Positions 4,219 through 21,548 of a stretch of 64,000 nucleotides of DNA are shown here, piece by piece. The position numbers were made by a program, and so were the translations under genes. The notes beneath the pieces were generated by a model. It was not told the DNA's origin. It did no database searches and saw only the letters and a program-made list of their open reading frames with translations. Positions within the stretch are counted from its first letter, which is position 1. Every line of letters starts with the position of its first letter. The stretch is taken from positions 196-64,195 of the forward strand of contig JAYFNT010000030.1 in assembly GCA_034933285.1 (NCBI GenBank). Direction: 5' to 3'. This DNA is from Geobacteraceae bacterium. GTDB lineage: Bacteria > Desulfobacterota > Desulfuromonadia > Geobacterales > Geobacteraceae.

Positions 4219-4352
4219 TGATGGAACTCAATGCAGCTCATCAGGCGTATGCAGGTGAAGATAGTTCCGGGGACATCCATGACAAGTATCGTCAAGGAGA
4301 AAACAAGACGAAGGGGTTGGCCCTTGACATGAGATATTTTAAAGGGGTCTTT

Positions 4353-4423
4353 GGGGTCAGGTTAGAATTCTGGATATTTGTCAAAACTGAAAGTGGAAAT
4401 ATCTGAATCTCTAACCTGACCCC
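4353..4423. repeat. GTCAGGT-family hairpin repeat
   Basis: GGGGTCAGGTTAGA (4353-4366) / TCTAACCTGACCCC (4410-4423) with a 43-nt loop. Confidence 0.85.
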
Positions 4424-4434
4424 GAGGGGTCCTG

Positions 4435-4643: not shown

Positions 4644-5855
4644 CTATTGCTCCTGCCGGGATATGAAATTGTAAAGATATTTCGCCTTCAGCGCCATGAT
4701 CCTGCCGCACGCCTGGTCGATGCGCTCTCGACTGATCCTTCCGCTCTCCACCATTTTCCGCAGGGTTTCGATGGTCCTCGGAGCGATGTCCGGGCTGTTC
4801 TGCTTGTCGTTGGCAAGAAGCAGCAGGTCAACCCCGGCATTGATCGCCTTTTCCAGCACGGTTTCATAGCTGTAGTGCTGGGCAATCGCCCCCATGTAGA
4901 GATCGTCGCTGGCCACAACGCCATCATAACCGAGACGTTTGCGCAGAATGCCATCAATGGTATTTTTCGACAGGGTCGCGGGATAGTCCGGGTCAATGGC
5001 TGTATTGAACGTATGTGCCGTCATAACCATGTCCACAACCCCTAGGTCGATCAGGTTTTTGTAGGGCGCCAGTTCTTTTTCGCTCCAGGTCGAGGTCACA
5101 TCCACGAGCCCCATGTGAGAATCATCACGGGAACTGCCGTGACCCGGAAAATGCTTCAGACAGGTAACGACATTCCGGCGGTGGTGGCTCTTTATGACTT
5201 CGGCGGCATGGGCGGTTACGACTGCGGAGTCGGCGGAGTAGCTGCGTTGCTTGACTGCGATGACCGGGTTGGCGGGATTGAGATTCAGGTCGACCACCGG
5301 GGCCAGGTTGAGGTTGATCCGGTAATGCACCAGGTTATCCACCAGTTTGCCGGAAGCCGTCCTGGTAAGGTTCAGGTCATTTTTCTCTCCCAGATATGCC
5401 GCGGAAACCGAGGATGGAAAACCGTAGCGATCCTTGAGGCGGGAAATGATTCCCCCCTCCTCATCCACCGCGACGAAAATCGGGGTATCCGCGTATGACC
5501 ACAGTGAGTCAGTCAGGGTTTTCAACTGGGCGGGTCCGGTAATATTGCGGTCATGAACATCCAGATCGACATTGTTGTCGAAAAGCACCACCCCGCCGAT
5601 CTTGTAGTCGCGTATGGCCACGGAAATCTGGCTGTCCGGGGTAATCGTCTCACCCGGAAAACCGAGCATGAGCATCTGGGCGATTTTGCGCTCCAACGGC
5701 CAGGCGCGCCAATCGGGCAGCTTGCTTGACTGACTCGGAACAACGCTTTGCGTCCCGGCGCACCCAGGCAGCAACCACACAACCAGCAGAGTAAGCGCGG
5801 CCATGACAAAAATGCGTGGAACACGGCGATATGTGACAAGAAAATTGCACTGCAT
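4644..5855 (-). CDS. glycoside hydrolase family 3 beta-N-acetylhexosaminidase-like lipoprotein (NagZ-like)
   Basis: 403-aa ORF with the GH3 N-terminal signature KHFPGHGSSRDDSH and a lipobox LLPGC near the N-terminus. An alternative start is at 5804. Confidence 0.8.
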   Translation of the reverse strand: MQCNFLVTYRRVPRIFVMAALTLLVVWLLPGCAGTQSVVPSQSSKLPDWRAWPLERKIAQMLMLGFPGETITPDSQISVAIRDYKIGGVVLFDNNVDLDVHDRNITGPAQLKTLTDSLWSYADTPIFVAVDEEGGIISRLKDRYGFPSSVSAAYLGEKNDLNLTRTASGKLVDNLVHYRINLNLAPVVDLNLNPANPVIAVKQRSYSADSAVVTAHAAEVIKSHHRRNVVTCLKHFPGHGSSRDDSHMGLVDVTSTWSEKELAPYKNLIDLGVVDMVMTAHTFNTAIDPDYPATLSKNTIDGILRKRLGYDGVVASDDLYMGAIAQHYSYETVLEKAINAGVDLLLLANDKQNSPDIAPRTIETLRKMVESGRISRERIDQACGRIMALKAKYLYNFISRQEQ

Positions 5856-5869
5856 CGGAATACCCCTGT

Positions 5870-6643
5870 TTAAAAATGGTATCGCAGACCAATCAACATT
5901 CCATGTGCGCGCAGGGGAGCGGAGGTTCTGCCTATGGCCTGCGAACGCCTATCCATCCGCATTATTCCGGGATTGGTCTGCACCCTTCCCAGATCGGTAT
6001 AACGGTAGGAGACATCGAGCAGCAGGTGTTTCGTCAATTCGAAACCCGTTCCGGCGGTTGCCATGAAAGCCAGATCAGTCCTTGCTCCCCCCGGAATTAT
6101 GCTGTAGTTGTGATAGGCAAGTTGCGGAAAACGGTAGGTCATCTCTCCGATCCAGTTAACGGCAACACCAATGCCACCTCCCACGTACGGTTGAAAGCGG
6201 CCGAAACTGACGCCGGGCAAGGCATTGGCGTCAAAATATACGTTCAACAGACTGCTCAGGGAGTCGGCGCTTCCTGAAACAGGCTGGGAACCGGGGACGC
6301 CGTTGAAGTTTGCCTGCCCCGAGTAATGCATGCTGGGACGATAGGCCAGAGCCACCTCCAACCGTAGCCACGGCAAAAGTCGCATACCCGCGGCCCCCTC
6401 CACGAAACCGTAGGTATCGAAATCGCCATAAGCGCCGAGAGGTCTGCCGTCACTGCCATTACCCGCGCCAAACAATGCCGCGCCGTTGCCGCCGTCATCC
6501 CTGAAATTGGTGTCATTAAGCCAATCAACGCCGCCTGAAATACGAAGATAGTAGTCTGCGGCAAAAGCCGGCGAAGCGACAAACAGCATCAGAAACAAAT
6601 TCAGGAATACTACGCTGCTGTTTTTTTTCAAGAGATTCCTCAT
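5870..6643 (-). CDS. outer-membrane beta-barrel protein (OmpA-beta-barrel/OmpW-like porin family)
   Basis: 257 aa. Signal peptide ends ...ASPAFA/ADYY. Alternating amphipathic beta-strand pattern and a C-terminal ...GLRYHF aromatic terminus typical of BAM substrates. It lies downstream of the riboswitch at 6931-7020. Confidence 0.75.
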   Translation of the reverse strand: MRNLLKKNSSVVFLNLFLMLFVASPAFAADYYLRISGGVDWLNDTNFRDDGGNGAALFGAGNGSDGRPLGAYGDFDTYGFVEGAAGMRLLPWLRLEVALAYRPSMHYSGQANFNGVPGSQPVSGSADSLSSLLNVYFDANALPGVSFGRFQPYVGGGIGVAVNWIGEMTYRFPQLAYHNYSIIPGGARTDLAFMATAGTGFELTKHLLLDVSYRYTDLGRVQTNPGIMRMDRRSQAIGRTSAPLRAHGMLIGLRYHF

Positions 6644-6880: not shown

Positions 6881-6918
6881 AAAAAAACGCCCTTCTTTCG
6901 TAACATCATGAAGGGCGT
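6881..6918 (-). terminator. intrinsic terminator forming the expression platform of the GEMM-I riboswitch
   Basis: Minus strand reads ACGCCCUUC-AUGAUGUUACGAAA-GAAGGGCGU followed by UUUUUUU. The upstream GAGGGCG (6931-6937) can compete for the CGCCCUU arm as an anti-terminator. Confidence 0.75.
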
Positions 6919-6930
6919 GACATCCATATT

Positions 6931-7020
6931 CGCCCTCTTTTCGGTAACCCGGCTATCCCTGTAGTGGATCCGTGGTTTTGCGTCCCCAGGTTTCCCCGGG
7001 TTTGCTCTTGTCATAGAGGA
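6931..7020 (-). promoter_or_regulatory. GEMM-I (cyclic-dinucleotide) riboswitch aptamer
   Basis: Minus strand reads CCUCUAUGACAAGAGCAAACCCGGGGAAACCUGGGGACGCAAAACCACGGAUCCACUACAGGGAUAGCCGGGUUACCGAAAAGAGG. It matches the GEMM-I hallmarks GCAAACC, a GAAA tetraloop hairpin, GGGACGCAAA(G/A)CC and (G/A)UAGC..GGGUUACCGA. P1 is closed by CCUCU/AGAGG. Confidence 0.8.
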
Positions 7021-7062
7021 TATATATCTCTCATCGATACCGCCGGCAACCGATTCTGTCAA
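7021..7062 (-). promoter_or_regulatory. candidate sigma70-type promoter(s) for the riboswitch transcript
   Basis: On the minus strand there are two options: TTGACA (7062-7057)-N17-TATCGA, or TTGCCG (7049-7044)-N17-TATATA (7026-7021), just 5' of the aptamer. Which one is used cannot be decided from sequence. Confidence 0.3.
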
Positions 7063-7128: not shown

Positions 7129-7448
7129 CTACCCAGAATTACAGAATTATAATGTGGCGGATCATAATGTCCCCGTCATCACAAGTATCGTTCAGCAGCT
7201 TGACAAGCGGGCGTTATGGACATAACCTGTCCGGCAGTTGAAAAACTGTTGCGGAACCCACCTGCGGCGTTGGCGGTGTCCTCACCCTCGCCTGTCCAAG
7301 TAAAATGCCCCGGGTGCTGCGCTCCGTGCACCTTGCATCCGGACTTCCTCACGACGTTTTTCAACAGCGCTGCCGGAGCCGTTTCAATTGCTGAAACGCA
7401 AATAAAAGTGCAACCTGCAAGCAGGTATTAATGAAAGGAGAAAGTTCC

Positions 7449-8012
7449 ATGTCGTTTTCTGCCAGAATCATCTTATTCACCTCTCTAGCTCTCATCCCCA
7501 CTGTGGCATTCGCCTCTCCGAAAAAGCTCGTCAACGACAGCGAATACTCGGACAAGGATTTCCGCAAATGCATCATAAAGGATTACTCGGATATGGTGGA
7601 CGGTGACGACATTAAATGGGTCTGGACCAACCCGTCAGTCAAGCTTTCCGGATACAGGCTCAAGGAAGGGAAGGTGGAAAACAAGTCCGATTTGCGCAGT
7701 AAATCCATGCAGGAGACAGTCAAGAAAGTCTTCAAGGACACATTTGAAGACATGGAAGGAAAAGGGGCAAGCGGCATTCTTACCGCCGACATCTGTATCT
7801 ACGAAGCGCAGAATTTCAGCGGGGGGAAAGCATGGATACCTTTCGTCGGCTCGCATGAGATGCAGGCTGGTGTAGGGGTGGAAATGGTCTTGCGCGACGC
7901 GAAAAACAGGGTAGTAGGAAAATTCCGGCATTCAGCCCGTGAAGGCGCGCAGATCGAGAATGCAGCCCAGGAAGTGGCCAGCGACCTGATGAAGTATATC
8001 GGCAATCACTAG
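7449..8012 (+). CDS. secreted hypothetical protein
   Basis: ORF 7431-8012. The ATG at 7449 follows AAAGGAGAAA and gives signal peptide MSFSARIILFTSLALIPTVAFA/SP. I recognise no catalytic motif. Confidence 0.6.
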   Translation: MSFSARIILFTSLALIPTVAFASPKKLVNDSEYSDKDFRKCIIKDYSDMVDGDDIKWVWTNPSVKLSGYRLKEGKVENKSDLRSKSMQETVKKVFKDTFEDMEGKGASGILTADICIYEAQNFSGGKAWIPFVGSHEMQAGVGVEMVLRDAKNRVVGKFRHSAREGAQIENAAQEVASDLMKYIGNH

Positions 8013-10871: not shown

Positions 10872-10990
10872 GGGCGGGTCTCCAACCCGCCCTCGGTGTG
10901 TTTTGCCCACATCATGATATTTCAAGAAACGTAGGGGCAACCCCCCGTGGTTGCCCTTTCATTGGGCAGGCACAGGGGCCTGCCCCTACA
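10869..10990. repeat. GC-rich REP-like hairpins starting with GTAGGGGC
   Basis: GTAGGGGCGGGT-CTCCA-ACCCGCCC (10869-10892), and GTAGGGGCAACC..GGTTGCCC plus GGGCAGGC..GCCTGCCCCTAC (10931-10989). Related copies are at 27546-27571 and 32111-32140. Confidence 0.7.
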
Positions 10991-11014
10991 ATTATTGCAA
11001 AGGAAGCATACACC

Positions 11015-12732
<1,718 letters not shown>

Positions 12733-12736
<4 letters not shown>

Positions 12737-21432: not shown

Positions 21433-21530
21433 TTTTAGGTTTTAAGTGTTAAGTAAAAACCCTTAGTCCTAAAACATAAAACTTAACACCTAAAACTTAA
21501 AACTTAAAACTTATAAGTTATAACTTAAAA
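21431..21530. repeat. AT-rich heptamer array arranged as an imperfect long inverted repeat between cistrons
   Basis: AGTTTTA GGTTTTA AGTGTTA AGTAAAA ... TAAAACA TAAAACT TAACACC TAAAACT TAAAACT TAAAACT TATAAGT TATAACT TAAAACG. The left and right blocks are reverse complements. It lies between trpG and trpD. Confidence 0.85.
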
Positions 21531-21548
21531 CGTTCTTTTGGTGTTTTT

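Follow-up and report, generated by a model that had tools for sequence, protein, structure and literature searches.

The closest described relatives of the element reported here are the GEMM-Ib riboswitches of Geobacter, such as Gs1761/pgcA, the pilM riboswitch of G. metallireducens and Gmet_0970. The Geobacteraceae are the lineage in which GEMM-Ib RNAs and cyclic AMP-GMP (cGAMP) signaling by Hypr GGDEF enzymes were described; Hypr GGDEFs are reported as a conserved feature of Geobacter species, and GEMM-Ib accounts for 13 of the 17 GEMM-I RNAs of G. sulfurreducens (PMC6456294, PMC8835794). We analyzed a 64-kb stretch of DNA from an uncultured Geobacteraceae bacterium (64,000 nucleotides of contig JAYFNT010000030.1; the window), the minus strand of which carries a GEMM-I riboswitch ahead of genes for an outer-membrane beta-barrel protein and a NagZ-type hydrolase of glycoside hydrolase family 3 (GH3). 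Our reading, held with moderate confidence, is that of a GEMM-Ib-type transcriptional OFF riboswitch with A at selectivity position 20 (A20), the most likely ligand being 3'3'-cGAMP from a Hypr GGDEF enzyme.

The nucleotides that distinguish cGAMP from cyclic di-GMP (c-di-GMP) were located from the open papers PMC6140456 and PMC6274999 and the supplement of PMC9262584, which cite the original structure studies and from which the position numbers and selectivity facts used here were taken. G20 of the Vibrio cholerae Vc2 RNA pairs with the ligand's G-alpha, and its equivalent in Gs1761 is A14 (PMC6140456). The boundaries given for Gs1761 are A9-A14 for J1/2, C15-G40 for P2, A41 for J2/3 and G74-C75 for J1/3 (PMC6274999). 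C92 pairs in Watson-Crick fashion with the ligand's G-beta (PMC5888326, PMC6140456), and C6944 of the window RNA would do likewise. In Cd1 of Clostridioides difficile the selectivity nucleotide is G11, the G directly 5' of GCAAA (PMC9262584 supplement); the G11A construct changes AAATAGGCAAATC to AAATAAGCAAATC, and the sequences of both Cd1 and pilM are printed in the same supplement (PMC9262584).

When the whole window was scanned with the Rfam models at their gathering thresholds, there was one match only, at 7015-6939 of the minus strand, and a permissive scan of the neighborhood returned the same aptamer match again. The match was to RF03167, with 65.4 bits (gathering score 59), an E value of 3.2e-13 and the full model, 1-80, covered (cmscan). 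Another family of clan CL00126 also scored above its own gathering score on this aptamer and was masked by the clan filter. The near-identical ortholog in locus L005 was filed under RF01051 with 63.2 bits (gathering score 35). An earlier note, made from the letters of the DNA, had proposed a GEMM-I aptamer from GCAAACC, CCCGGG-GAAA-CCUGGG, GGGACGCAAAACC, AUAGCCGGGUUACCGA and the P1 strands CCUCU/AGAGG, all of which are indeed read on the minus strand. The three-helix junction with GCAAA, GACGCAAA and the CCG closing segment is present in full, and the RF01051-type match that the note had proposed to look for exists within clan CL00126. The riboswitch call is secure because the Rfam match in the window is joined by the RF01051 match of the L005 ortholog; the window RNA is a genuine conserved GEMM-I cyclic-dinucleotide riboswitch. 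The interval originally assigned to it, 6881-7062, extends exactly from the first base of the -35 TTGACA to the last U of the terminator. The parts of the riboswitch and its operon are collected in Table 1.

Table 1. Features of the riboswitch and its operon, in window coordinates
Feature	Position	Strand	Sequence, pairing or basis
Sigma-70-like promoter	7062-7034	minus	-35 TTGACA 7062-7057; 17-nucleotide spacer; -10 TATCGA 7039-7034
GEMM-I aptamer with full P1	7020-6933	minus	cmscan and pairing in ortholog alignment A1
P1, distal part	7020-7015 / 6938-6933	minus	UCCUCU / AGAGGG
P1, proximal part	7013-7012 / 6943-6942	minus	two pairs
J1/2	7011-7006	minus	ACAAGA; last nucleotide, A7006, is position 20
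Position-20 nucleotide	7006	minus	A; directly 5' of the GCAAA helix; equivalent of Vc2 G20 and Gs1761 A14
P2	7005-6980	minus	first pairs G7005-C6980 and C7004-G6981; 6-bp hairpin with GAAA loop 6994-6991
J2/3	from 6979	minus	A6979 is the A47 equivalent (covariance-model alignment)
P3	6977-6946	minus	
J1/3	6945, 6944	minus	A6945 and C6944 are the A91 and C92 equivalents (covariance-model alignment)
Anti-terminator	6937-6931 / 6917-6911	minus	GAGGGCG / CGCCCUU; 7 bp; -10.3 kcal/mol
Intrinsic terminator	6918-6910 / 6895-6887	minus	ACGCCCUUC / GAAGGGCGU; 9 bp; 14-nucleotide loop; -14.7 kcal/mol
Terminator U7 tract	6887-6881	minus	
Leader	6880-6632	minus	about 250 nucleotides; separates the riboswitch terminator from the barrel gene
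Outer-membrane beta-barrel gene	5870-6631	minus	253 residues from a conserved TTG; the mechanical open reading frame starts at ATG 6643
GH3 NagZ-type beta-N-acetylhexosaminidase gene	4644-5855	minus	403 residues; 14 nucleotides downstream of the barrel gene

The assignment of A7006 to the position of G20 and A14 follows from the published sequences, since in these the selectivity nucleotide sits directly 5' of GCAAA. J1/2 is ungapped in the covariance-model alignments and has A where the consensus sequences of RF03167 and RF01051 both have G. The earlier note had read this position as A; the covariance-model alignment gives A and not G in this column, and the mapping is backed by the Cd1 and Gs1761 sequences. 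The G at position 20 that is canonical for c-di-GMP-specific GEMM-I RNAs, where it is the Hoogsteen partner of G-alpha, is thus absent from the window RNA, while A47 (6979) and C92 (6944) are retained, and the resulting signature, A-A-C, is that of GEMM-Ib. A7006 is invariant in all four orthologous loci of an alignment (A1) described below.

Although RF03167, the 'c-di-GMP-I-GGC' variant class with an orphan ligand, is the best-scoring family for the window RNA, it is extremely improbable that the RNA belongs to it. The RF03167 and RF01051 consensus sequences have a sole difference among the ligand contacts, position 47, which is G in the former (GACGCGAA) and A in the latter (GACGCAAA). The window RNA reads GACGCAAA, and positions 47 and 20 are both blank in the RF03167 match line. 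Membership was ruled out on the absence of the defining G47 (A6979 stands in its place), position 20 being mismatched as well. What the window RNA has in common with this variant is the sequence of the P2/P3 backbone (CCACGG...AGCCGGG), but not G47 or G20. RF03167 as top label is a backbone artifact, because the score stems from this common backbone, and the label flips to RF01051 in the L005 ortholog. Automated Rfam annotation would mislabel A20 aptamers with this backbone as the orphan 'GGC' variant.

Of 122 aptamers with the same backbone in a metagenome sample, 111 have G at position 20, 7 have A and 4 have C. With A in only 7 of the 122, A20 in the window RNA is a minority state that has been maintained rather than a default.

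Some other GEMM-I aptamers deserve mention in their own right. C at position 20, with J1/2 reading ...AAAC directly before GCAAAC, is found in the metagenomic GEMM-I aptamers of L027, L032, L117 and possibly L106, which thus have neither the G of the c-di-GMP state nor the A of the cGAMP state. Other A20 aptamers with the J1/2 of the window RNA (GACAAGA or GATAAGA) occur in GC-rich organisms (L038, 4464-4525; L075, minus strand; L072, 1860-1924). In these the P1 3' strand holds the Shine-Dalgarno sequence of genes for large secreted proteins, one of them a protease of the pro-kumamolisin/sedolisin type, and the three look like translational switches on secreted proteases. Tandem GEMM-I aptamers on the same strand, about 100-180 nucleotides apart, are present in L044 (1211-1440) and in L099.

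When compared with the known systems, the window RNA has most in common with the Geobacter GEMM-Ib RNAs, which it resembles in its working and with which it is grouped by sequence signature: the GEMM-I three-helix fold, an A as the pairing partner of the ligand's alpha base (A14 = A20), A and C at the positions of A41/A47 and C75/C92, a Geobacteraceae host, control by an intrinsic terminator, and targets at the cell surface or in the envelope. In contrast to them it has a GAAA tetraloop on P2, and its targets are a barrel protein and a GH3 enzyme (with a C1 peptidase in one ortholog), whereas theirs are cytochromes or pili. The junction is near-identical to that of Vc2 except at position 20, and the GAAA tetraloop on P2 is also found in Vc2. 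Unlike the window RNA, however, Vc2 has G20 and is specific for c-di-GMP, its G20A mutant being an engineered bispecific RNA. P3 of the window RNA is shorter than that of Vc2 and without the Vc2 receptor sequence, and Vc2 is treated as a translational switch (PMC9262584), whereas the expression platform in the window is transcriptional. In its platform the window RNA is most like Cd1, with the same P-A-T-H strand order and the layout of a transcriptional OFF switch (PMC9262584). In both, a ligand-bound form with P1 and terminator stands against a ligand-free form with an anti-terminator made of the P1 3' strand and the terminator 5' arm. Cd1 differs from it in having G11 at the selectivity position, in sensing c-di-GMP and in belonging to the Firmicutes, where it controls flagellar genes.

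The host is a member of the Geobacteraceae: the prolyl-tRNA synthetase encoded at 10898-12736 shares 91% identity with proteins of metagenome-assembled genomes (MAGs) from the Geobacteraceae, 83% with that of Geotalea daltonii FRC-32 and 82% with that of Geobacter sp. AOG1. The exact locus was found again in the assemblies of SRR27243496 and SRR9590235. To obtain orthologous loci, homologs of the downstream barrel protein were collected, and their contigs were fetched and scanned. The riboswitch was found in three diverged orthologous loci, L004 (barrel protein 86% identical), L005/L006 (80%) and L010 (75%), and in each the barrel gene is preceded by the promoter, the A20 aptamer, the anti-terminator and the terminator seen in the window. 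It was not found near barrel homologs of at most 71% identity (L007, L009, L011-L014), and a scan of genome contigs with the barrel protein gave one relative, a Geobacteraceae MAG at 66% identity, without the riboswitch.

Alignment A1 comprises the four orthologous loci from promoter to terminator and has a mean column identity of 86%. The sequence CTTGACAGAAT, J1/2 with A20, the anti-terminator and the terminator 5' arm are invariant; CTTGACAGAAT and TAxCGA of the promoter are kept in all four. Paired cells amount to 98.6%, as compared with at most 51% when the partners are slid. There is one compensatory change in P2, from C-G to U-A, a series of A-U, G-C and G-U at the base of P3, and a change from U.G to C-G in proximal P1. 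The terminator stem has three one-sided changes, and pairing is retained in all of them. The conservation thus speaks for function, with little contributed by covariation.

Transcription would start near 7027 from the promoter in Table 1, which a consensus promoter scan did not list, the -10 box being without T at position 6. The earlier note had described a U-tract terminator and a competing anti-terminator, and both helices were found. A G+C-rich hairpin with a U tract, mutually exclusive with a helix that shares the P1 strand, is the layout of a Rho-independent riboswitch. The P1 3' strand (6938-6933) shares nucleotides with the anti-terminator 5' arm (6937-6931), and the 3' arm of the anti-terminator is the 5' arm of the terminator. 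P1 is part of the minimum-free-energy structure when the transcript ends at 6930. When it ends at 6905-6896, with the 3' arm of the terminator still to be made, that structure has the anti-terminator instead, the ensemble of which is about 6 kcal/mol more stable than that of the aptamer with P1. With a ligand contribution of -8 to -11 kcal/mol added to the model, the preference is reversed 20- to 5000-fold. Ligand is expected to favor termination because the P1 3' strand overlaps the anti-terminator and not the terminator, so that a locked P1 only frees the terminator 5' arm. On this modeling, the riboswitch is predicted to be an OFF switch in vivo.

The following sequence of events can be proposed. 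Transcription would start at the TTGACA/TATCGA promoter, and the aptamer (7020-6933) would fold first. In the ligand-free RNA, CGCCCUU would capture the P1 3' strand AGAGGG to give the anti-terminator hairpin, and RNA polymerase would read through the leader into the barrel gene and the gene of the NagZ-type GH3 lipoprotein. With ligand bound, P1 would be locked and CGCCCUUC would be free to pair with GAAGGGCG, so that the U7 terminator would form and the operon would be OFF. The most likely ligand would be cGAMP from a Hypr GGDEF enzyme, and there may be a cross-response to c-di-GMP.

Several observations weigh against this reading, with respect to the evolutionary support for the helices, the direction of switching, and the ligand. 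A shuffle control on A1 gave 73/500, a weak result with four sequences only, and the anti-terminator, being without variation in the four orthologs, receives no support from covariation. The characterized Geobacter GEMM-Ib RNAs are all ON switches, and an OFF switch is without precedent in the lineage (PMC6456294, PMC9262584); the ON-type platform, which is typical of these RNAs although not strictly defining, is not what is predicted for the window RNA, and the cGAMP-responsive ON switch of pilM contrasts with its OFF layout (PMC9262584). The aptamer could then be as described and yet act as an ON switch, or the terminator could be constitutive and regulation could lie elsewhere in the 250-nucleotide leader. 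The precedent of the ON switches speaks for this, as does the finding that the full-length RNA at equilibrium favors the terminator with or without P1, and the long structured leader otherwise goes unexplained. The overlap of the P1 3' strand with the anti-terminator argues otherwise, since stabilization of P1 only frees the terminator 5' arm, and the layout of P1, anti-terminator and terminator is kept base for base in the four loci, whereas the leader is not. We regard this explanation as quite improbable.

The ligand is the more delicate question. Selectivity for cGAMP requires A20 but is not ensured by it, and the sequence cannot settle the ligand. The bispecific Vc2-G20A RNA binds c-di-GMP at 53 nM and cGAMP at 120 nM, and a natural A20 RNA, Cbe 1-2, prefers c-di-GMP (30 nM) to cGAMP (463 nM) (PMC6140456). 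The junction of the window RNA (G19, G21-C46, A91) is that of Vc2 and not that of Gs1761 or pilM, which have U13, C15-G40 or C-U/G-G, and G74 (PMC9262584 supplement, PMC6274999). Selectivity is also reported to depend on P1 stability and to change with mutations of lower P2, which lies outside the pocket (PMC9262584). No GG[DE][DE]F motif was found in the open reading frames (ORFs) of at least 100 residues in the window, so a cGAMP synthase in the host genome is assumed from the family only. The same OFF riboswitch could instead be bispecific or prefer c-di-GMP, with A20 as a protonated adenine binding G-alpha of c-di-GMP; the sessility signal c-di-GMP, alone or with cGAMP, would then repress the operon. 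The junction core is indeed nearly the Vc2-G20A sequence (AGAGCAAACC, GGGACGCAAA, GGGUUACCGA), and neither Vc2-G20A nor Cbe 1-2 binds c-di-GMP less well than cGAMP. That c-di-GMP should repress secreted or surface hydrolases would follow a familiar logic, and the riboswitch also precedes a papain-family peptidase in L005. Against this, A20 GEMM-I RNAs of the Geobacteraceae are reported to respond to cGAMP, with G20 copies coexisting for c-di-GMP (PMC6456294, PMC8835794), and A20 is invariant in four diverged orthologs while about 91% of aptamers with this backbone elsewhere have G20. Because of this last contrast, the A seems to have been selected for a reason other than binding of c-di-GMP, which G20 serves better. 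A bispecific or c-di-GMP-preferring switch is thus rather unlikely, though it is by far the most substantial of the alternatives, and 3'3'-cGAMP is probably the main physiological ligand. The window RNA has the GEMM-Ib sequence feature, A at the G20 equivalent together with A47 and C92, in a Geobacteraceae host, and the term candidate, by which the earlier note had qualified its cGAMP (GEMM-Ib) assignment, is of fitting strength.

The genes behind the riboswitch are not the classic cytochrome or pilus targets, as had been remarked at the outset; they encode a small barrel protein and a NagZ-type GH3 lipoprotein. The barrel protein matches PF13505 (OMP_b-brl; E 3e-13), and the gene call in L002 also gives 253 residues. 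Its AlphaFold model is confident, with a pLDDT (predicted local distance difference test) score of 91, and comes closest in fold to the OmpA transmembrane domain, OprG, OmpW and omptin (TM-scores about 0.5). Judging by the model, the protein is a barrel of the small OmpA/OmpW-like kind rather than a classical trimeric porin, so that of the description 'porin-like' (5870-6643) the outer-membrane barrel stands and the porin does not. The GH3 protein matches PF00933 (E 5e-67), and its best NCBIfam match is NF003740, beta-N-acetylhexosaminidase (E 7.5e-51), a match that does not reach the curated cutoff of that model. Its translation shows KHFPGHGSSRDDSH (KHFPGHG...DDSH), which we take to be the NagZ-type GH3 motif, and an N-terminal LLPGC, presumably a lipobox-like N-terminus; of the NagZ-like lipoprotein proposed for 4644-5855, the NagZ-type GH3 enzyme is borne out by these matches.

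In L005 (1405-6121) the first gene behind the riboswitch encodes a papain-family (C1) peptidase of 775 residues that has a lectin-like domain; the barrel gene comes next, and the GH3 gene after it. The sole visible remnant of the peptidase gene is a 26-codon stretch (MQRSGFRF...) in L010 at 480-580, which suggests loss of the gene in the lineage of the window. The regulated unit is thus made up of exported or surface hydrolases together with the barrel protein. In G. sulfurreducens, tandem riboswitches precede an operon for a YkuD L,D-transpeptidase lipoprotein, and envelope targets are thus within the known regulon.

The window RNA is a further example of a published class, of which the A20 determinant and the host lineage were already known. 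What is new here is the conserved target operon, the predicted OFF polarity and the combination of a Vc2-like core with A20. Tentatively, we suggest that the cGAMP regulon of the Geobacteraceae may have in it a first repressive (OFF) arm, or else that it is a natural bispecific sensor of cGAMP and c-di-GMP. If the former is true, rising cGAMP would shut down a surface-remodeling operon of small outer-membrane barrel protein, periplasmic or surface NagZ-type glycosidase and, ancestrally, a secreted papain-like peptidase with a lectin domain. With OFF logic and a response to cGAMP, the role of cGAMP in metal reducers would include repression of envelope remodeling besides activation of electron-transfer genes. 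A conserved, previously unlisted target operon is added to the A20/GEMM-Ib regulon of the Geobacteraceae. As its junction is Vc2-like, this A20 RNA is also a natural test case for determinants of cGAMP versus c-di-GMP selectivity beyond A20.

The leader between the terminator and the barrel gene can form a long-range stem, AAUUCCAAUUCCAAAUCA (6788-6771) with UGAUUUGGAACCGGAAU (6679-6663), with a fold z-score of -2.5, and is similar to the leaders of L004 and L010 in the last 60 or so nucleotides only. A second riboswitch was looked for in it, and the permissive Rfam scan gave no match beyond noise; nor was a second copy, as expected of a mobile repeat, found within the window. That it could be a decayed peptidase gene was rejected when a tblastn search with the L005 peptidase gave nothing, either in the leader or in the window as a whole, and a second terminator-like hairpin at 6856-6839 was dismissed as being within chance expectation and not conserved. 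Just 5' of the ribosome-binding site of the barrel gene there is a palindrome, CGCCATGGCG, at 6660-6651. In L004 (4088-4116) and L010 (628-668) the same sequence makes up the 3' arm of a longer hairpin, CCGCCATGGTG...CACCATGGCGCGG, and may serve as a conserved intercistronic element for processing, stability or translation.

The minus strand has an inverted repeat, GGGGTCAGGTTAGAG ... CTAACCTGACCCC, at 4342-4428, downstream of the stop codon of the GH3 gene; no canonical U-tract terminator was found there, and the repeat may mark the end of the operon or be a repeat element. Upstream of the riboswitch promoter, a divergent ORF of 193 residues (7431-8012, plus strand) gave no Pfam or NCBIfam match, and it also stands beside the riboswitch in L002. 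Elsewhere in the window, the heptamer TAAAACT is repeated in tandem 8.9 times in an intergenic region at 21470-21531.

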